Virus record (IMG/VR): IMGVR_UViG_3300017917_003521
Direction: 5' to 3' (one strand)
DNA: 64,000 bases
Source: a virus
Lineage: Duplodnaviria; Heunggongvirae; Uroviricota; Caudoviricetes
Shown here: positions 3,506 to 29,459 of the stretch, piece after piece
Position numbering within the stretch: the stretch's first letter is position 1
Layout: every line of letters begins with the position of its first letter
The notes under the pieces: model-generated
What the model saw: only the letters and a program-made list of their open reading frames with translations
Told to the model about the DNA's origin: nothing
Databases searched by the model: none
Made by a program: the position numbers and the translations under genes

Positions 3506-5439
3506 AAAAAACATACATAACACACGTCACTAGAGACTATTTAGATGTAGCTATAAATTTAGCAAAGTCTATTGAGTTGTTTTCTAAAATACCTTTAGTT
3601 GTTTACTGCATCGGATTAGAAGATTCTGATAAGGAAAAGTTCAATATATTTAAAAATGTGGAGTTAAGAAATATAGAACTAGATATAAAATCAAATGATG
3701 ATGATTATGTTACTAATAGTTCTGGTAACTTCTACATAAATAGAAATAGTACTAGAATATATCAAATTTTATGTGCTAAGACAATAGCTATGGAAATGGC
3801 TTTAGAAGAAGGATTTGACGAGGTTTGCTATCTAGATTCTGATTGTTTAGCAACACCTTTTGTAGATGAACTTTTTGATTGGACTAATAATATATCTGAC
3901 TTTCCAATTGCAACTGAAGGTATACATGAGTATATGATTATAATTGAGAATGGAATTCAAAAAGGAAATCCATTCATTAATTGGCCCATAGCAGACAATA
4001 CATATAGCTTAGAATGGCCCTTAATGAATTTTATGCAAATGAAGCCAGAAGAAAGAGGTAGATACAGGACTACAGGTATAATGTTAATGAATCAAAATTG
4101 TTTACCTTTTATTAGAACTTGGAGAGAACTTTGCTTTTTATTACCAAAATTGGTTGATACTAGACATTATGCTCCGTACCATGAAGAGACTATATATAAT
4201 GTACTATCATGGAAGAAAGAAAATAAAGGTTTTCCTCTTTGTTATATAAATTTAGGAGAAGGATTAGAAACAGTTAAACATTTCTACTCAGATGAATCAG
4301 TAGAAGGTAATTTAAGGTGGTCGGATACAGATACATCTCAAAATTTTTATAAAATTCCTGACGATAAAAAATATGTAAAAGTTTTACACGGTGAAAAAAG
4401 AACATCAGAGGTTGAAAGTATTTTAGACTTCTTAAATAATAATAAAACAAAAAAAAATCCTAAAATTTTAATTCAAATTGACACTTTTGCAGATACACAA
4501 GATAAAATAGAAATAACAAAACTTTGTATTGAGTCTTTAAAGGATTTTGAATATCCTATTCTTTTAACATCACATATAGATGTGCCAGATGAAATTAAAG
4601 ATTTATGTGATTATAGTTATATTGATAATAATAATGTTCTACTACCACCAACAACTAATAAATCATTTCTTAGATTCTATTCAGATTTTTTATCATCAGA
4701 GATTATATTAAATAACTCAGATCCACATGCTCCGGCTTGTCTATCTAGTATCATAAATGGTGCTAGATTTGCAATAAATAATAATTTTGATTTCTTTATT
4801 AGATTTGAGTATGATGTTTTTATAAAAGAAGAATACAAAAACTATGTAAAAGACTTAATAAAATCATCATCAAAGATGGATGGATTGGTTTTTTATAATA
4901 ACAATTGGTTAGATGGTAAAATAATAATGATTAAACCAGAATTATACCTTAAAAAGTTTGATGTTGATATTAATAGTTCAGATGATTATTATAATTTACT
5001 ATCTAAAAATGGTGTACTTGATGATAATAGAAGACATTTACAAAATACACAATATAAAATATTAAATGATTCTGGATTACTAAATAATGTAAATAAAATA
5101 CCTACTAGAGATCTAGAAGATTTAATTGATAATAGATTATCTATAAAAGAGTCTGGTGTATTTAGACCGGTCTACATAGAAGGTGATGAATCTAGTTTTG
5201 CTAATATATGCCACGGTTGGATAGATGGTGATGTTAAGGTTGATATATATTTAGATAATGTTTTAATATACAATTATATTCAAAAGTATATTGCTAATTC
5301 TATAACATATAGAATATTTCAATTTGAAAATAAAAATTATAAAATAATATCAACAGATTTAAAAACAAATAAAGTTGAGATTTTTGAATTTTCAAACATT
5401 CAAGAATTAAAAAATTTAGGAAAATTAATATTAAATTAA
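3502..5439 (+). CDS. Multi-domain putative glycosyltransferase
   Basis: GT-A-like YLDSD (DxD), HEETIYN; second module ILLTSHIDV; position in glycan locus. Confidence 0.5.
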   Translation: MKKTYITHVTRDYLDVAINLAKSIELFSKIPLVVYCIGLEDSDKEKFNIFKNVELRNIELDIKSNDDDYVTNSSGNFYINRNSTRIYQILCAKTIAMEMALEEGFDEVCYLDSDCLATPFVDELFDWTNNISDFPIATEGIHEYMIIIENGIQKGNPFINWPIADNTYSLEWPLMNFMQMKPEERGRYRTTGIMLMNQNCLPFIRTWRELCFLLPKLVDTRHYAPYHEETIYNVLSWKKENKGFPLCYINLGEGLETVKHFYSDESVEGNLRWSDTDTSQNFYKIPDDKKYVKVLHGEKRTSEVESILDFLNNNKTKKNPKILIQIDTFADTQDKIEITKLCIESLKDFEYPILLTSHIDVPDEIKDLCDYSYIDNNNVLLPPTTNKSFLRFYSDFLSSEIILNNSDPHAPACLSSIINGARFAINNNFDFFIRFEYDVFIKEEYKNYVKDLIKSSSKMDGLVFYNNNWLDGKIIMIKPELYLKKFDVDINSSDDYYNLLSKNGVLDDNRRHLQNTQYKILNDSGLLNNVNKIPTRDLEDLIDNRLSIKESGVFRPVYIEGDESSFANICHGWIDGDVKVDIYLDNVLIYNYIQKYIANSITYRIFQFENKNYKIISTDLKTNKVEIFEFSNIQELKNLGKLILN

Positions 5440-6536
5440 TGAGTGACAATTTTTGTATAATAGTTTTTTCACATGCTGATAGTGAAGAAAAAGAAGAAAT
5501 TCTTTATAATTCCTTATCATCAATAAAGCGCCTTAACATATCAATAATTCTAGCATCACATATTCCTGTGAGCGAAAGAAATCAAAACCTATGTGATTAC
5601 TATGTTAAAGATAGTAACAACCTTATATTAAGTGAGTCGGATATTATAAATAATCCGGTTAAAACATCAAAAGATATTTATAACACAACTGATTATTTTG
5701 GTGGATTAAAATTTGAGACATCTGTTTTTAAAAAAACATATCAAGCTGGTGTTTTTAATCTTTATATAAGTGCTTTTAGATTTGCAAATAATATAGGTTT
5801 TAAAAATGCGATTTTATGGGAGTTTGATTATATACTTGGTGATAAATCAGTTTTTTTTATAAATGATTCTATTAACAGAATTTTATCCGAAGGAGTAGAA
5901 TGTTTATACTTTAATAGTATTATTAACATATTTAATAATGATATTATTCAAAAGTCTATAGATTGTTGTTATGCAATTCCTGCATTTTTTAATTTAGAGA
6001 AGTTTAACTCTATTTGTCCTATCAATTTTATAAAAAGTGGAAAAGAGTATAATGAAATAAGTCGACTGATGATAATGGAACAATGGATAAAATCATATAT
6101 TGTAGATAGATGTGAGAGAAAAATAGAATATCCATATGATCATTATAACAATTTATTACCGGATACTAAACTAGGACAAGTACACAGTCAAAGAGATAAC
6201 TACCTTCTATCTGGTTTGAGAAGTGGTTTATATTTTAATGACGATAGAACATCTTTATGTTTACTTTTTGCAAATATGTCACTAAATCTACTTAGTTCAA
6301 CTTTTCAGATATATCATGATGGTAATTTAATATTTGATATAAAAAGAGATTTATATCCAAAAAGTTGGTTTTATGACTTTTTAAATAGTGTAATTGTTGA
6401 CTTATGTAAGTCAAAAAATGGTTGTCTTATTAAAGAAACTGTTGAAGATTTAAATACTAAAAAAGTTGATATTTTTGAGTATGTAATAAATGAAGAAAAT
6501 ATAGATTTTGTTTGTAAATTAAAAAAATTCTCTTAA
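5439..6536 (+). CDS. Hypothetical protein, paralog of the C-terminal half of 3502..5439
   Basis: Shared IILASH / CDY / EFDY-EYD motifs. Confidence 0.45.
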   Translation: MSDNFCIIVFSHADSEEKEEILYNSLSSIKRLNISIILASHIPVSERNQNLCDYYVKDSNNLILSESDIINNPVKTSKDIYNTTDYFGGLKFETSVFKKTYQAGVFNLYISAFRFANNIGFKNAILWEFDYILGDKSVFFINDSINRILSEGVECLYFNSIINIFNNDIIQKSIDCCYAIPAFFNLEKFNSICPINFIKSGKEYNEISRLMIMEQWIKSYIVDRCERKIEYPYDHYNNLLPDTKLGQVHSQRDNYLLSGLRSGLYFNDDRTSLCLLFANMSLNLLSSTFQIYHDGNLIFDIKRDLYPKSWFYDFLNSVIVDLCKSKNGCLIKETVEDLNTKKVDIFEYVINEENIDFVCKLKKFS

Positions 6537-6563: not shown

Positions 6564-6582
6564 AAACTTTTTTAATATATAC
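6564..6582 (+). promoter_or_regulatory. Putative phage promoter AAACTTTTT(T)AATATATAC upstream of tRNA-fMet
   Basis: Same motif recurs at about 7881, 15463 and 26085 ahead of tRNA arrays. Confidence 0.55.
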
Positions 6583-6689: not shown

Positions 6690-6721
6690 TTTGGTGAAAT
6701 GAAAAAGTCTCCATATCTTTG
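6690..6721 (+). promoter_or_regulatory. Bacteroidota-type primary sigma promoter (TTTG-N20-TATCTTTG)
   Basis: Matches the -33 TTTG / -7 TAnnTTTG consensus. Confidence 0.7.
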
Positions 6722-6757
6722 TAAAAGAAATAAGAAAACAATATAAAACGAATTAAA

Positions 6758-6835
6758 ATGAACACTGTTATGAACATAGCGTATTATTATGAGGGGGAGC
6801 GTAGCTCAAACGTCAGACTAATGTCTATGTCGTAA
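6758..6835 (+). CDS. Leader peptide 1 MNTVMNIAYYYEGERSSNVRLMSMS (putative Tyr/Glu attenuator)
   Basis: 25-aa ORF between promoter and terminator; TAT-TAT-TAT-GAG-GGG-GAG run. Confidence 0.75.
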   Translation: MNTVMNIAYYYEGERSSNVRLMSMS

Positions 6836-6857
6836 TGGTTTCATTATGATATTAACT

Positions 6858-6893
6858 AACCCAGTCTGACTTATCAGACTGGGTTTTTTGTTT
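6858..6893 (+). terminator. Intrinsic terminator/attenuator before Glu/Tyr tRNA array
   Basis: AACCCAGTCTGA-CTTA-TCAGACTGGGTT plus U-tract. Confidence 0.85.
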
Positions 6894-6911
6894 TAAAGTT
6901 CTTTGAAATTT

Positions 6912-6998
6912 GGGAGTATAACGTCAGCGGCATGTTAGAGCCGCCCCTAAACAAATAGACGTATAGAGGTAACTTGTGTGCAAATCCAGGTGCTCCCA
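6912..6998 (+). ncRNA. tRNA-like RNA with aberrant D and anticodon arms
   Basis: Acceptor GGGAGTA/TGCTCCC and degenerate T arm (GTGCAAATC); no canonical anticodon loop. Confidence 0.5.
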
Positions 6999-7004
6999 CA
7001 AAAT

Positions 7005-7076
7005 GGTCCTGTCGACTAATGGTTAGGTCAACACCCTTTCAAGGTGTAGATGCGGGTTCGATCCCCGTCAGGACTA
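7005..7076 (+). tRNA. tRNA-Glu (TTC)
   Basis: ACACC-CTTTCAA-GGTGT; canonical cloverleaf. Confidence 0.9.
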
Positions 7077-7084
7077 CAAAAAAT

Positions 7085-7164
7085 GCTACGGTATGCAAAC
7101 CGGAATAAGCGACCAGACTTTCAATCTGGACATCGAAAGATGTGTGCGGGTTCCGTCCGTAGTA
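7085..7164 (+). tRNA. Atypical tRNA, TTC (Glu) anticodon with long variable arm and truncated T arm
   Basis: CCAGA-CTTTCAA-TCTGG; V arm CATC-GAAA-GATG; T arm reduced to GCGG-GTT-CCGT. Confidence 0.6.
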
Positions 7165-7171
7165 CAAAAAT

Positions 7172-7254
7172 GGGAATGATGTGACACAGGTAGTCACGCT
7201 AGTCTGTAAAACTAGTGCCTTCGGGCGTTGCGAGTTCGAGTCTCGCCATTCCCA
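7172..7254 (+). tRNA. tRNA-Tyr (GTA)
   Basis: CTAGT-CTGTAAA-ACTAG; long V arm. Confidence 0.9.
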
Positions 7255-7261
7255 CAAACAA

Positions 7262-7345
7262 GGGAGAGCGCCAACGTTGGAGAGTTGGGCTGGTCTGTAA
7301 AATCAGTGGCTTACGCCTGAGTGGGTTCGATTCCCACCTCTCCCA
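7262..7345 (+). tRNA. tRNA-Tyr (GTA)
   Basis: CTGGT-CTGTAAA-ATCAG; long V arm. Confidence 0.9.
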
Positions 7346-7351
7346 CAAAAT

Positions 7352-7424
7352 GATGCCATCGACTAAGGGCTTAGGTCGCCATCCTCTCAAGGTGGAAATA
7401 CGGGTTCGAATCCCGTTGGCATTA
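7352..7424 (+). tRNA. tRNA-Glu (CTC)
   Basis: CCATC-CTCTCAA-GGTGG. Confidence 0.9.
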
Positions 7425-7486
7425 CAAAAAAACTTGAAAAAGTTTGGTAATTAAAATTAAATTACTATCTTTGTAGAGTTGAAAAT

Positions 7487-7558
7487 GGTCCGTTAGTGAA
7501 GCGGTTAACACGCTACCCTTTCACGGTAGAGGCACGGGTTCGAACCCCGTACGGACTA
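7487..7558 (+). tRNA. tRNA-Glu (TTC)
   Basis: CTACC-CTTTCAC-GGTAG. Confidence 0.9.
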
Positions 7559-7563
7559 CAAAT

Positions 7564-7678
7564 GACGCAAAAGGGTCAGGTGATGATATGATGGGTCTGC
7601 TCGAGATACTAGTTCAGCAGTTTAGTAAGACATCATATATGTAGCTTGGAGAGTTTGGTTCAATTCCGAACTGCGTCT
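7564..7678 (+). ncRNA. tRNA-like RNA with greatly extended central arm
   Basis: GACGCA/TGCGTC acceptor, GTTTGG-TTCAATT-CCGAAC T arm, long ATATGATG/CATCATAT helix in place of the anticodon arm. Confidence 0.55.
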
Positions 7679-7682
7679 CTAA

Positions 7683-7760
7683 AAAACAGATAACTCCGGT
7701 ATGGTCTCAATCATTACTCAGAACCGGACTTAGGAGAGTTACAAGTTGAGATTCTGTTTT
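7683..7760 (+). ncRNA. Unassigned structured RNA (possible pseudoknot)
   Basis: Nested AAAACAGA/TCTGTTTT, TAACTC/GAGTTA, CGGT/ACCG plus crossing TCTCAA/TTGAGA. Confidence 0.35.
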
Positions 7761-7766
7761 TTTTAT

Positions 7767-7849
7767 TGGTAGGTATGCAAGTGGTTAAAGCGATCGGTCT
7801 GTAAAACCGCCCTCTTCGGAGTTCGGGGGTTCAAATCCCTCCCTGCCAA
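7767..7849 (+). tRNA. tRNA-Tyr (GTA)
   Basis: TCGGT-CTGTAAA-ACCGC; long V arm. Confidence 0.85.
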
Positions 7850-7915
7850 CAAATAATAAAAAAAATTAAAAGGGAAGATAAAACTTTTTATATATACTTT
7901 AATATAATTAAAACG

Positions 7916-9634: not shown

Positions 9635-10456
9635 ATGAAAACAAAAGACACCTTCGGGGATCGTATGAAAATGTACGAAAACCAAACCTGTGGAATTAGA
9701 TTAATTCCCAGAATTCCAGTAATTGCCCGTCTTGATGGTAAAGGATTCTCTAAATTTACTAAAGGTCTTAAAAGACCGTATGATGAAAGACTATCTAAAT
9801 TGATGATTGAAACTACTAAGTATTTAGTTAAAGAAACTAATGCAAACTGTGGCTATACTCAATCTGATGAAATCACTTTAATGTGGTACACTGATAAGAT
9901 CGATGCTTCAATTTATTTTGATGGTCGTTTATTTAAGATGCTTTCCGATCTTTCGGCTATGGCTTCTGTATTCTTTAATAGAAAACTTAGCGAATATCTT
10001 CCAGAAAAGGCTGATAAGATGCCTAGATTTGATGCTAGAGTTTACAACGTTCCAACTTTAGATGAGGCGATGAATTCATTCCTTTGGAGAGAACAAGATG
10101 CAACTAAGAACTCAATTACTATGGCGGCTTCTCATTATTACTCTCACAAAGAGTTACACGGAAAGAATGGAAATGAAAAACAAGAAATGCTTTTTCAAAA
10201 AGGTGTTAATTGGAATGATTACCCAACTTTCTTCAAGAGGGGTACTTATGTACAAAGAAAAAGAGTTTTAACTCCTTTCAGCGCTGAAGAGATTGAAAAA
10301 CTACCAATTAAACACAATGCTAGAAAAGATCCTAGTATGTTAATTGAAAGATGGGTTATTGATGTGGTTGAATTACCTAAACTATCAAGTATTGAAAATT
10401 CTGTTGAAGTTATTGTTTTTGGTGAAGAACCTAAATTAAAAAGTCCAGTTATTTAA
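9635..10456 (+). CDS. thg1: tRNA(His) guanylyltransferase / Thg1-like 3'-5' polymerase
   Basis: ARLDGKGFSKFTK, GYTQSDEI, FDARV, WREQDATKNSI motifs. Confidence 0.92.
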   Translation: MKTKDTFGDRMKMYENQTCGIRLIPRIPVIARLDGKGFSKFTKGLKRPYDERLSKLMIETTKYLVKETNANCGYTQSDEITLMWYTDKIDASIYFDGRLFKMLSDLSAMASVFFNRKLSEYLPEKADKMPRFDARVYNVPTLDEAMNSFLWREQDATKNSITMAASHYYSHKELHGKNGNEKQEMLFQKGVNWNDYPTFFKRGTYVQRKRVLTPFSAEEIEKLPIKHNARKDPSMLIERWVIDVVELPKLSSIENSVEVIVFGEEPKLKSPVI

Positions 10457-15338: not shown

Positions 15339-15484
15339 TAAAACAATTGAGAGAGGCAACGATTTAGATACAAATTTCAATTTTTTTTACAAATTTTAGA
15401 AAAAAATTAGGCAAACTTAAAACTTTTATCTATATTTGTATAAAATAAGTCAAAAGGAACAAAAACTTTTTAATATATACAACA

Positions 15485-18650: not shown

Positions 18651-18693
18651 AATAAAATTTTGAAATTAATCACATTTTTATTAAATTTGTAAA

Positions 18694-20157
18694 ATGAAAA
18701 ATATAGTAACAAGAATTGCACCTTCTCCAACTGGACCGTTTGCACATATTGGTAATGTGAGAACTCTATTGTATAACTACTTTCTTGCTAAAAAGAATGG
18801 TGGTAAATTCTATGTTCGTTTGGAAGATACCGATCGTGATAGATATAATGCCTCGTTTTTAACATACTTTAAAGATATGTGTGATTGGCTTGGTATAGTA
18901 CCTGATGGTTCTTATTGGAACCCTGATCCATCTATTGGCTCATTCACTCAATCAACAAGAGATTATTCAGATAAGGTTAAATTCCTTTTAGATAAAGGTT
19001 TGGCTTACTATGCCTTTGATACTAAGGATGATTTAGACGCACTAAAGGCTAAAGGTCTAAAGTATGACTCAACAACTCGCATGTCTATGAATAACTCATT
19101 GACTAATCCATCCACTGATATTATGTTACAAAGTGGTGTTCCTTATGTAATTAGATTTGCTGTTCCAGCTGACTTAGATGTAACTTTCACTGATGCTATT
19201 TTAGGTGATATCACAATCAACACAAATACTTTAGATGATAAAGTTTTAATTAAGTCAAATGGAATTGGCTCATATCATCTTTGTAATGTTTGTGACGATC
19301 ATGATATGGGTGTTACTCACGTTCTTAGAGGTAACGAGTGGGTAAACTCTACTCCTTTCCACGTTATTCTTTATAAGGCTTTTGGTTGGGATGTTCCTAC
19401 ATTTGCTCACTTACCTTTAATTATGAATCCAGATGGTAAAGGTAAGTTGTCTAAGAGAACTGCTATGAAGTATGGTATTCCTATCGCACCACTTGGTTAC
19501 ACAGATGATAATGGTGTTTATACACCAGGTTGGAAAGACTTAGGATATGATCCTAAAGCATTTATGAACTATCTTGCTTTAATTGGTTGGAATCCAGGAG
19601 CTGAAGTAGAAATTATGTCTATGGATGATATGATTAATTTATTCTCTTTAGATAGAGTTCACAAGTCTGGTGCTCGTTTCGATATGGATAAAGCTAAGTG
19701 GATGAACTCTCAATATCTTAAATTAACAGATAACAAAGACTTGATGCCTTATGTTGATGTAGTTGACGATAGATATTCTGATGATAAATTAGACATGATT
19801 GTCTCTTTGGCTAAAGATAGATCTGACTTTAAAACTGACTTGAATAAAATTGTTAAATTATTCTTTGATGTCCCTTCTATCGATGATAGAAGTAAATTAG
19901 ATGATAACTATACAAAAGTTATGTCAGACTTTATCAACAAAATTGATACAATTAACTTTGATGATACAAACTCAATCAAAGACACTATCTCATCAATCTG
20001 TAATGATTTAGGTGTTAAGATGGGTAAAGTAATGCCTGGTTTAAGAATGGCTTTGGTATCCGGGATTGCTGGACCAGACTTAATGACAACAATGTCAATT
20101 CTAGGTAAAGACCAAACAAAATTGAGAATTAATAACTCAATTACGGTAATGGCTTAA
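18694..20157 (+). CDS. gltX: Glutamyl-tRNA synthetase
   Basis: RIAPSPTG, HIGN, RLEDTD, VLRGNEW, KLSKR, anticodon-binding tail. Confidence 0.95.
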   Translation: MKNIVTRIAPSPTGPFAHIGNVRTLLYNYFLAKKNGGKFYVRLEDTDRDRYNASFLTYFKDMCDWLGIVPDGSYWNPDPSIGSFTQSTRDYSDKVKFLLDKGLAYYAFDTKDDLDALKAKGLKYDSTTRMSMNNSLTNPSTDIMLQSGVPYVIRFAVPADLDVTFTDAILGDITINTNTLDDKVLIKSNGIGSYHLCNVCDDHDMGVTHVLRGNEWVNSTPFHVILYKAFGWDVPTFAHLPLIMNPDGKGKLSKRTAMKYGIPIAPLGYTDDNGVYTPGWKDLGYDPKAFMNYLALIGWNPGAEVEIMSMDDMINLFSLDRVHKSGARFDMDKAKWMNSQYLKLTDNKDLMPYVDVVDDRYSDDKLDMIVSLAKDRSDFKTDLNKIVKLFFDVPSIDDRSKLDDNYTKVMSDFINKIDTINFDDTNSIKDTISSICNDLGVKMGKVMPGLRMALVSGIAGPDLMTTMSILGKDQTKLRINNSITVMA

Positions 20158-26028: not shown

Positions 26029-26102
26029 TTTGACAAATTAAAACTTTGTTGTATATTTGTATAAAATAAGAACAAAAGGAACAAAAACTTTTTAATATAT
26101 AC
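26029..26102 (+). promoter_or_regulatory. Promoter cassette (host-type TTTG-N19-TATATTTG plus phage motif), duplicate of 15430-15480
   Basis: 30-nt identity CAAAAGGAACAAAAACTTTTTAATATATAC at 15451-15480 and 26073-26102. Confidence 0.7.
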
Positions 26103-27854: not shown

Positions 27855-29459
27855 ATGAATTTCATTGAAGAAAAAATATTAGATAAAGGTAATCTTGATA
27901 AATTAACTTTAAGATTCCCACCAGAGCCAAATGGTTATTTACATATTGGTCACGCTAAATCCATTATCTTAAATTTTGGATTGGCTGAAAAATATAATAG
28001 ACCTTGTAACTTGAGATTTGATGATACAAATCCAACTACTGAAGATACACATTTTGTTGAATCTATAATAAAAGATATAGAATGGTTAGGCTACAAGCCT
28101 GCTAATATTTTCTATACATCTGATTACTTTGAATTTATTTACAAATGTGCTGTTACTTTAATTAAGAAAGGTCTAGCTTATGTTGATGATTCAACATCTG
28201 AAGAAATTGCTAACTTAAAAGGAACACCCACAGTTGCTGGTAAAGATTCACCATACAAGTCAAGAACTATTGAAGAAAACTTAGATCTATTTAATAGAAT
28301 GAGATTAGGTGAATTTGTTGAAGGTTCTAAAATTCTTAGAGCTAACATTGATATGGCTTCTCCTAATATGATTTTAAGAGATCCTGTTATTTATAGAATA
28401 ATATCTAAGTCACATCATAGAACTGGTGATACTTGGAAGATTTATCCAATGTATGATTTTGCTCATCCTTTAAGTGATTATAACGAAGGTATTACTGATT
28501 CTTTATGTACTTTAGAATTTGAAGTTCATAGACCTTTATATATGTGGGTCTTAGAAAATTGTGATTTAGAAAATCCTTTACCAGAAGAAACTGAGTTTGC
28601 TCGTTTGAACATTGACTATACAGTTATGTCAAAGAGAAAGTTAAAGAGATTAGTTGAAGAATCTTATGTTGATGGTTGGGATGATCCAAGAATGCCTACT
28701 ATCTCTGGATTAAGAAGAAGAGGTTATACACCAAGTGCTATTAAAGATTTTTGTGATAGAATTTCTGTTACTAGAAAAGATGGTGTTGTTTCTTATTCTT
28801 TACTTGAAGAATGTCTAAGAACCGAATTGAATAAGACTGCTCCAAGATTAATGGGTGTCATGGATCCTGTTAAGTTAGTTGTTACTAATTTTGAAGGTGA
28901 AGGATATTGTGAAATTGACAATAATCCAGAAGATGAAAATGCTGGTAAAAGAAAAGTTTCTTATTGTAATGAATTTTGGATTGAAAAAGAAGATTTCAGA
29001 GAAGAAGCCAATAACAAATATCACAGATTAAAGTTAGGTGGTGAAGTTAGATTAAAAGGATTGTTTATAGTTAAAGCCAATGAAATAATTAAAGATGAAA
29101 ACGGTGAAATTATAGAAATCAGATGTACTTATGACCACGATGCTTGGATTGGTGTTACTGAAAAGAGGGTTAAAGGTACTATTCACTGGGTTTCTGTTAA
29201 CCACGGAGTTAAGATGAAAGTAAACGATTATGATAGATTATTTATCAATAGTTCACCAGACAAAGGAGATGAAGATTTTACAACTCATGTCAATCCTAAC
29301 TCATTAGTTATTAATGATAATGCTATCTTTGAGGAAAATGTAAAAGATTGTAAAGTAGGTGTGCCTGTTCAAATGATGAGAAAAGGTTACTATGTTTTAG
29401 ATAAAGATGGTAAGTCTTGGAACAGAACTGTAAGTTTGAAAGAAGGATGGGTAGGTTAA
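27855..29459 (+). CDS. glnS: Glutaminyl-tRNA synthetase
   Basis: RFPPEPNGYLHIGHAKS, RFDDTNP, IYPMYDFAH, CTLEF, MSKRKL, KGTIHWVS. Confidence 0.96.
   Translation: MNFIEEKILDKGNLDKLTLRFPPEPNGYLHIGHAKSIILNFGLAEKYNRPCNLRFDDTNPTTEDTHFVESIIKDIEWLGYKPANIFYTSDYFEFIYKCAVTLIKKGLAYVDDSTSEEIANLKGTPTVAGKDSPYKSRTIEENLDLFNRMRLGEFVEGSKILRANIDMASPNMILRDPVIYRIISKSHHRTGDTWKIYPMYDFAHPLSDYNEGITDSLCTLEFEVHRPLYMWVLENCDLENPLPEETEFARLNIDYTVMSKRKLKRLVEESYVDGWDDPRMPTISGLRRRGYTPSAIKDFCDRISVTRKDGVVSYSLLEECLRTELNKTAPRLMGVMDPVKLVVTNFEGEGYCEIDNNPEDENAGKRKVSYCNEFWIEKEDFREEANNKYHRLKLGGEVRLKGLFIVKANEIIKDENGEIIEIRCTYDHDAWIGVTEKRVKGTIHWVSVNHGVKMKVNDYDRLFINSSPDKGDEDFTTHVNPNSLVINDNAIFEENVKDCKVGVPVQMMRKGYYVLDKDGKSWNRTVSLKEGWVG

Follow-up and report, generated by a model that had tools for sequence, protein, structure and literature searches.

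The first block of a phage array of tyrosine (Tyr) and glutamate (Glu) tRNA genes is probably gated by a ribosome-mediated leader-peptide attenuator. The array and its leader occupy positions 6758 to 7849 of a 64,000-nucleotide (nt) stretch of the IMG/VR virus record IMGVR_UViG_3300017917_003521 (Caudoviricetes); this whole stretch is hereafter called the window, and the element is referred to as attenuator 1. The features by which leader-peptide attenuators are recognized at the sequence level are all present, namely, I) a short open reading frame (ORF); II) a cluster of particular codons; III) an intrinsic terminator; IV) an antiterminator that excludes the terminator; and V) pairing between regions 1 and 2 of the leader. 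The sequence anatomy, two alternative folds that are conserved among related phages, and a match between the leader codons and the tRNA array were observed directly. Amino acids other than Tyr and Glu are given in the standard three-letter code.

Phage tRNAs are commonly regarded as constitutively expressed cargo, and the reason for their carriage is a long-standing question. If the present reading is correct, the phage gauges decoding speed codon by codon and tops up only those tRNAs that are running short, so that translation capacity would be under feedback of the simplest possible kind. Attenuation of the classical type, which is known for amino-acid and synthetase genes, would then extend to tRNAs, and a handle would be gained on phage responses to tRNA-targeting defences. 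Because the leader predicts the content of the array, such elements may also help in annotating tRNA arrays, and they could serve as natural, portable sensors for the supply of a chosen tRNA.

Promoter, leader ORF, and terminator

A Bacteroidota-type promoter was found by motif scan at 6690-6721 (this and all other features of the locus are on the + strand), with TTTG at -33 (6690-6693) and TAtcTTTG at -7 (6714-6721) separated by 20 nt. It is kept in the homologues L017, L024, L023, and L015, where it lies 73-83 nt 5' of an AACATAG block that begins at codon 6 of the leader. The leader ORF begins roughly 30 nt past the predicted transcription start and comprises 25 codons (6758-6835; ATG at 6758, stop codon at 6833-6835). 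The 20 nt 5' of its start are 65% A and lack a Shine-Dalgarno sequence, and in this they resemble the real gene starts of the window.

The leader was first noticed, in an earlier note on this DNA, for the codons TAT TAT TAT GAG GGG GAG ahead of Tyr and Glu tRNA genes; these sensing codons are present at 6782-6799, as part of region 1 (6773-6793). Given the length and composition of the peptide, a run with five of six codons from the set of Tyr and Glu has a probability of about 0.002 (scan statistic), and among the 436 small ORFs of the window there is one other occurrence of a Tyr/Glu run, in a poly-Glu stretch. Further downstream, regions 3 and 4 form an intrinsic terminator (6858-6889; -19.2 kcal/mol) with a stem of 10-12 bp, a CUUA loop, and a U6 tract; its 5' arm lies at 6860-6869, its 3' arm at 6874-6883 beyond the loop (CTTA in DNA), and the T6 run at 6884-6889. 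Between the terminator and the first tRNA gene, no full two-box promoter motif was found by the scan, nor any TAnnTTTG by direct reading.

Two alternative folds of the leader RNA

Region 2 (6812-6831) contains the antiterminator strand GUCAGACU at 6812-6819 (DNA GTCAGACT) and, at 6826-6831, the sequence CUAUGU, which pairs with AACAUAG at 6773-6779. The DNA sequence GTCAGACT at 6812-6819 is an 8-bp perfect complement of the 5'-arm side of the terminator at 6863-6870. It had been claimed in the earlier note that TCAGACT (6813-6819) is identical to the terminator 3' arm and can pair with the 5' arm, which is confirmed, G6812 bringing the helix to 8 bp. A complement as long as 8 nt occurred in 7 of 2000 shuffles; this exact-complement test is strong for attenuators 1 and 3 only, and weak for attenuator 2 and some other cassettes of the kind described below. 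The antiterminator duplex (-13.1 kcal/mol) is less stable than the terminator.

Compared with its shuffles, the leader RNA is far more strongly folded (z = -6.85). In the free RNA, region 1 (AACAUAG, the Tyr codons, and UGAG, 6773-6793) is paired with region 2 and the terminator stands separately; in this untranslated minimum-energy fold, the partners of the Tyr codons and of UGA(G) are UAAUG and UCA in region 2. To represent a stalled ribosome, its footprint on the last sensing codon was blocked and the transcript was ended before the terminator 3' arm. The minimum-energy fold of the window sequence under these constraints has 6812-6819 paired with 6863-6870 around an inner hairpin (6827-6852), which contains the stop codon and draws regions 2 and 3 together, and whose 5' strand has the start of the ORF as its alternative partner in the OFF fold. 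The full antiterminator helix was obtained in the constrained folds of six of seven sequences (the window, L009, L017, L013, L015, and L018); it was partial in L014, where the last sensing (Glu) codon is 6 nt from GUCAGAC. The earlier proposal that a stalled ribosome would leave the antiterminator free is thus seen in the constrained folds, and the antiterminator does lie past the sensing codons, although the distance of about 14 nt needs correction: TCAGACT is 13 nt, and G6812 12 nt, from the end of the last sensing codon at 6799.

Proposed mechanism

From this arrangement we infer that the leader is translated, that transcription and translation are coupled, and that termination at 6889 and read-through are the two outcomes of a regulatory response. 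Host RNA polymerase would initiate at the 6690-6721 promoter, and a ribosome would load on the 25-codon leader. With an ample supply of charged tRNA-Tyr and tRNA-Glu, the ribosome would reach the stop codon at 6833-6835, covering region 2 and opening the inner hairpin, the terminator at 6858-6889 would form, and the transcript would end after about 160 nt (OFF). Without ribosome loading, regions 1 and 2 would pair, with the same outcome. Slow decoding of Tyr or Glu codons would make the ribosome stall at 6782-6799 and cover region 1, and the freed GUCAGACU (6812-6819) would pair with AGUCUGAC (6863-6870) before the terminator 3' arm is made (ON). Read-through would then proceed into a tRNA-like unit, tRNA-Glu(TTC), a long-arm Glu copy, two tRNA-Tyr(GTA), and tRNA-Glu(CTC), and the new tRNAs would relieve the stall, giving negative feedback on decoding capacity. 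A second tRNA-Glu(TTC) and a third tRNA-Tyr(GTA) would have a basal supply from their own unregulated promoter; as these two genes escape the switch via this internal promoter, a basal plus an inducible level of expression is suggested.

The element cannot tell a lack of amino acid from a lack of tRNA, and because its product is tRNA, the useful signal would be a shortage of tRNA. Such a shortage may arise from decay of the host pool, from high codon demand of the phage, or from tRNA-targeting defences. It is possible, although on balance doubtful, that codon-matched attenuators of this kind serve as a damage sensor of the tRNA pool, each block staying silent until defences or shut-off of the host have cleaved, modified, or otherwise depleted the corresponding host tRNAs. 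If true, giant phages would thereby possess an economical counter-defence that is deployed on demand.

Conservation in ten homologues

Ten distinct homologues were collected: L013 and L014 by BLAST on the tRNAs, L019, L022, and L024 by a pattern free of helix constraints, and the remaining five by a pattern that fixes the helix. All ten, from huge Bacteroidota-type phages, have an open ORF with ATG and stop codon, a terminator (-12.5 to -20.1 kcal/mol), and an antiterminator duplex (-9.8 to -13.1 kcal/mol).

Both folds are kept in the homologues. For the OFF fold, 83.6% of cells are paired, compared with 32-46% when the partners are slid; the terminator helix is 95.7% paired, with compensatory changes at two pairs. 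For the ON fold, 89% of cells are paired, compared with 27-40% with slid partners, and the covariation exceeds that of all 500 shuffles. Three pairs of the inner-hairpin helix are changed on both sides (e.g., CG in four and UA in four sequences). The antiterminator helix is paired in 10/10 homologues, its closing pair being G-C in four, G-U in five, and A-U in one, namely L022, in which GTC is replaced by ATC and the partner C by T.

The leader peptide itself is not conserved apart from its Tyr/Glu-rich core, which is kept in forms such as YYYEGE, SYESYYEEG, GYEAYEY, EYYYEE, and CYYEGG. In six cores that were counted, Tyr and Glu make up 3 to 6 of 11 to 16 residues against a background of 12%, and the cores of L019 and L022, as read off, are likewise Tyr/Glu-rich. 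In every lineage with downstream sequence, Tyr and Glu tRNAs are found behind the leader. GUCAGAC is invariant, third codon positions included, which points to a constraint at the RNA level, while the Gly codon beside the sensing run drifts between GGG, GGT, GGA, and GGC; this synonymous drift points to a translated frame.

The Tyr/Glu tRNA array and its internal promoter

The tRNA genes were called with ARAGORN and Rfam. Beyond the terminator, the genes called in the first block are tRNA-Glu(TTC) at 7005-7077 (ARAGORN; Rfam 64.3 bits), two tRNA-Tyr(GTA) at 7172-7255 and 7262-7346 (ARAGORN), and tRNA-Glu(CTC) at 7352-7425 (ARAGORN; Rfam 54.8 bits). Between the first Glu and the Tyr genes lies a tRNA-Glu(TTC) copy with a long variable arm and a 6-nt deletion in its T arm (7084-7166), which was called by neither program and was recognized by its fold and by alignment; the alignment shows it to be orthologous to intact, called genes in L009, L017, L014, and L023. 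An internal Bacteroidota-type promoter, TTTG-N19-TAtcTTTG, follows at 7443-7473 with an exact consensus and no leader behind it, and it is kept at the same place in L017. On its 3' side are tRNA-Glu(TTC) at 7487-7559 (ARAGORN; Rfam 68 bits) and, beyond a hairpin and U9 element at 7686-7764, tRNA-Tyr(GTA) at 7767-7850 (ARAGORN).

With these calls, the earlier count of three Tyr and four Glu tRNAs holds for the three Tyr genes, two Glu(TTC) genes, and Glu(CTC), while the third Glu(TTC) gene is the copy with the deleted T arm. That note had further stressed the exact match of Glu(CTC) to the GAG codons, which is correct at this locus and not general, since leaders of the L019 type use GAA only though their array has Glu(CTC). 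Its suggestion of an internal host-type promoter near 7440-7475 agrees with the consensus match and with its conservation.

Several further elements of the array were noted. The first read-through product would be a tRNA-like unit (6912-6998) that is not called as a tRNA and consists of an acceptor stem, a T arm, and an ACGUC/GACGU helix around a hairpin, all conserved in relatives. The hairpin loop, at the position of the anticodon, varies among relatives in length and sequence (AUGUUAGA, GUGUAA, AUGUGA, ACGAAA), and the unit is therefore probably not a decoder. Long-variable-arm (class-II-like) tRNA-Glu(UUC) copies are also present at L009:5985-6071, at L014:20096-20181, and on the reverse strand of L023 at 4518-4601; across lineages, their anticodon and variable stems differ by compensatory changes. 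The 7686-7764 element is 94% identical in L017 and has few homologues; its interleaved helices (UCCGGU/ACCGGA and GUCUCAA/UUGAGAU) and U9 run are those of what is possibly a second conditional terminator. A 117-nt unit at 7564-7680, with acceptor-like (GACGCA/UGCGUC) and T-arm-like helices and a long insert, was seen in this window only.

Sister cassettes and the match between leaders and arrays

The window contains further cassettes of the same build, in which a leader and a terminator precede tRNA genes, namely, I) leader core IIEGGAGA before Gly, Met, and Ala tRNAs; II) MNLNMNLNLTVVNTLCIR before Asn, Ile, Arg, Leu, Val, Thr, and Met tRNAs; III) PQPQ..DQDP before Pro and Asp tRNAs; and IV) QYQQQQQ before Gln tRNAs. 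In L014, a leader with core KHKHFSKLNKWF precedes Phe, His, and Lys tRNAs, and one with core SSRSRSS precedes Arg and Ser tRNAs. Among the 120 possible permutations of leaders and arrays, the true pairing ranks first, both in the window and in L014.

In L019, L021, and L023, the Tyr/Glu array runs directly into Ile(TAT) and Gly tRNA genes without a second attenuator, followed after a short gap by more Gly and Glu(CTC) genes. Leader 1 of these three phages (EAIGYEGGAYSIS) contains two ATA, two GCG, two GGG, and one GGC codon, all of which are rare here except ATA. L015-type phages have a separate second attenuator, and the Tyr/Glu-rich core of their leader 1 is accompanied by single Ala and Gly codons only.

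The design is modular and is apparently found again in phage groups that are unrelated, among them the Caulobacter phage phiCbK, which can be cultured. In phiCbK (L027, JX100813.1, 47000-53000), annotated rho-independent terminators lie directly 5' of three tRNA blocks, and short ORFs 5' of these blocks encode, or are rich in, the amino acids that the respective block serves, most plainly a short ORF with the core RQFVRQIQVVRNI before Phe, Val, Ile, Ile, Val, Gln, and Gln tRNAs. The tRNA genes of Cronobacter phage GAP32 are scattered among protein genes, at a locus that was not scanned for leaders or terminators, and the attenuator-tRNA design is probably not universal.

Leaders before protein genes were also seen. 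At L013:36168-36290, a leader ORF that has four Ile codons in a row lies, together with an intrinsic terminator, directly 5' of an ORF resembling isoleucyl-tRNA synthetase (IleRS), with class-I synthetase motifs. At L014:8593-8700, a 14-codon leader (core LHTYKNVIDW) and a terminator lie 5' of small ORFs and an RNA-ligase-like ORF (KxDGSN); that the His, Tyr, Lys, Asn, and Asp codons of this leader recall the targets of known anticodon nucleases is a speculative remark.

Alternative explanations

Several points weigh against control by a codon-specific attenuator. Coupling of transcription and translation in the host is an assumption. Over the whole leader, Tyr and Glu are not enriched (5/24; binomial tail 0.16), only the clustered run being unusual, and the scan statistic was used for attenuator 1 instead of this non-significant composition test. 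The sensing run includes GGG, the rarest Gly codon (1%), and the block has no Gly tRNA. As six of the seven antiterminator pairs are invariant, covariation in this helix rests on one pair, and five of the homologues were found by a pattern that fixes those bases. Two tRNA genes (7487 and 7767) are served by the unregulated internal promoter. Lastly, leader 1 of L014 has Ile, Gly, and Ala codons despite a separate second attenuator; because of this intermediate, the covariation of leader and array in merged arrays rests on one lineage and is suggestive rather than clean.

A real attenuator might instead report general translation status or the timing of infection (ribosome availability, host shut-off, coupling), with the Tyr and Glu codons adding little specificity. 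The small number of sensing codons (five), the weak enrichment over the whole leader, and the rare GGG codon inside the run would fit this, and since the untranslated leader folds into the OFF state, any loss of translation would alter the output. Such a general sensor is nevertheless unlikely, because the Tyr/Glu core is kept in seven lineages that otherwise differ in sequence, the GGG codon is not conserved, and each paralogous leader fits its own array in the two permutation comparisons given above.

It is less likely still that there is no switch at all and that the leader is a small gene in its own right, encoding a peptide of 25 residues or a small RNA, with a constitutive terminator, the tRNAs being made by leaky read-through or from an unrecognized promoter. 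A promoter, a short ORF, and a terminator also describe a small gene, and a conserved motif with ATATATAC at its end, present elsewhere in the window, may represent a promoter type specific to the phage. However, it would be left unexplained why 6812-6819 has stayed complementary to the terminator arm, why the peptide drifts with its Tyr/Glu content kept, and why cassettes match their arrays, and no promoter motif is found between the terminator and the tRNA genes.

The least credible alternative is direct, T-box-like sensing, in which the codons pair with the anticodons of uncharged tRNAs and the antiterminator is stabilized without translation: the leader codons do match the downstream anticodons, and the terminator/antiterminator logic is common to T-boxes, but no T-box or other curated Rfam family matches (no T-box hit at E up to 1), the codons lie within a conserved frame that is open from ATG to stop in 10/10 homologues, the Gly codon drifts synonymously, and in the free RNA the Tyr codons are taken up by base pairs and so are not shown in a loop.

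Relation to known systems

Among the curated Rfam leader families (Trp, His, Leu, Thr, and others), none was reported above its gathering threshold. Membership of the trpB motif, a generic hairpin-plus-terminator model, was rejected, as the best hit in 6690-6900 scored 32.6 bits against a cut-off of 59; PyrR and small-RNA families were likewise rejected, their Rfam hits being sub-threshold and generic.

Enterobacterial leader-peptide attenuators such as trpL, hisL, pheL, leuL, thrL, and ilvL stand ahead of amino-acid operons. The phage element would have in common with them a short translated leader with clustered codons, the 1:2, 2:3, and 3:4 pairings, a terminator more stable than the antiterminator, and termination as the default at full or no translation. 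It differs from them in that it would regulate tRNA genes rather than biosynthetic enzymes, so that the output directly restores the quantity sensed, and in that the pairing of Tyr with Glu follows no metabolic logic and is explained only by the array. It is also phage-borne, lacks a Shine-Dalgarno sequence, and has a Bacteroidota-type promoter, and no relationship in sequence or by Rfam to the enterobacterial leaders was found.

In Escherichia coli, the pheM leader of pheST, and similar attenuators elsewhere, precede genes for aminoacyl-tRNA synthetases. Being leader-peptide attenuation of a translation-supply gene in response to charged tRNA, pheST is the closest functional precedent, and the Ile-run leader of L013 before its IleRS-like gene is the clade's own example of this type. 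In contrast to pheST, the phage element would yield tRNA as its product, and a single leader would be shared by two amino acids and several isoacceptors. T-boxes work without a ribosome, by direct binding of uncharged tRNA; they too read the state of a specific tRNA through a terminator/antiterminator switch before translation-supply genes, whereas the phage element has a conserved ORF and, by the Rfam model, no T-box features (stem I specifier loop, antiterminator bulge).

Phage-encoded tRNAs can make up for the loss of tRNAs, as in the case of those that overcome the PARIS AriB tRNA nuclease (PMC12409363). The two cases share the use of phage tRNA genes as a supply when the host pool is short or attacked; they differ in that the tRNAs are described in such work, in which no demand-sensing control of their transcription was found. 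Leader-peptide attenuation of tRNA genes was not found in a full-text literature search, the coverage of which excludes most subscription journals, and no mention of attenuators or leader peptides was found in the huge-phage and jumbo-phage papers that were checked. The element would represent classical ribosome-mediated attenuation re-used with tRNA as its output, and such control of tRNA genes was not found published.

Genomic context and host type

The window is AT-rich (29.8% G+C) and contains at least 37 tRNA genes, spread over several arrays. Other genes related to tRNAs include a Thg1-like tRNA-His guanylyltransferase gene (9635-10456), a glutamyl-tRNA synthetase (GluRS) gene (18694-20157) with its own host-type promoter (18659-18689) and without a leader, and a glutaminyl-tRNA synthetase (GlnRS) gene (27855-29459) downstream of Gln tRNAs. 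The closest database relatives of the window are the uncultured phage genomes LR745206.1 (634,780 bp) and LR756502.1 (642,428 bp), which were also the sole matches in a BLAST search of the leader against the phage collection; further relatives are several IMG/VR and metagenome contigs. A search for related loci anchored on the neighbouring ORF of 365 amino acids (5439-6536) found no relatives.

For phages of the Mahaphage clade, Bacteroidetes have been predicted as hosts (PMC7162821). In the window, a motif scan for TTTG-N17-21-TAnnTTTG gave 14 matches, 12 of them on the + strand, compared with 3.1 +/- 1.7 in shuffles, and the starts of real phage genes are A-rich and lack a Shine-Dalgarno sequence. 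The excess of the promoter motif and this type of gene start fit a Bacteroidetes-type host. A further conserved motif, AAACTTTTT(A)ATATATAC, occurs in the window at 6565-6582, 7880-7897, 15463-15480, and 26085-26102; in three of the four cases its end lies about 41 nt past a host-type -7 box, at 7880 it stands alone, 5' of leader 2, and it is a candidate for a phage-specific promoter or a 5' leader element.

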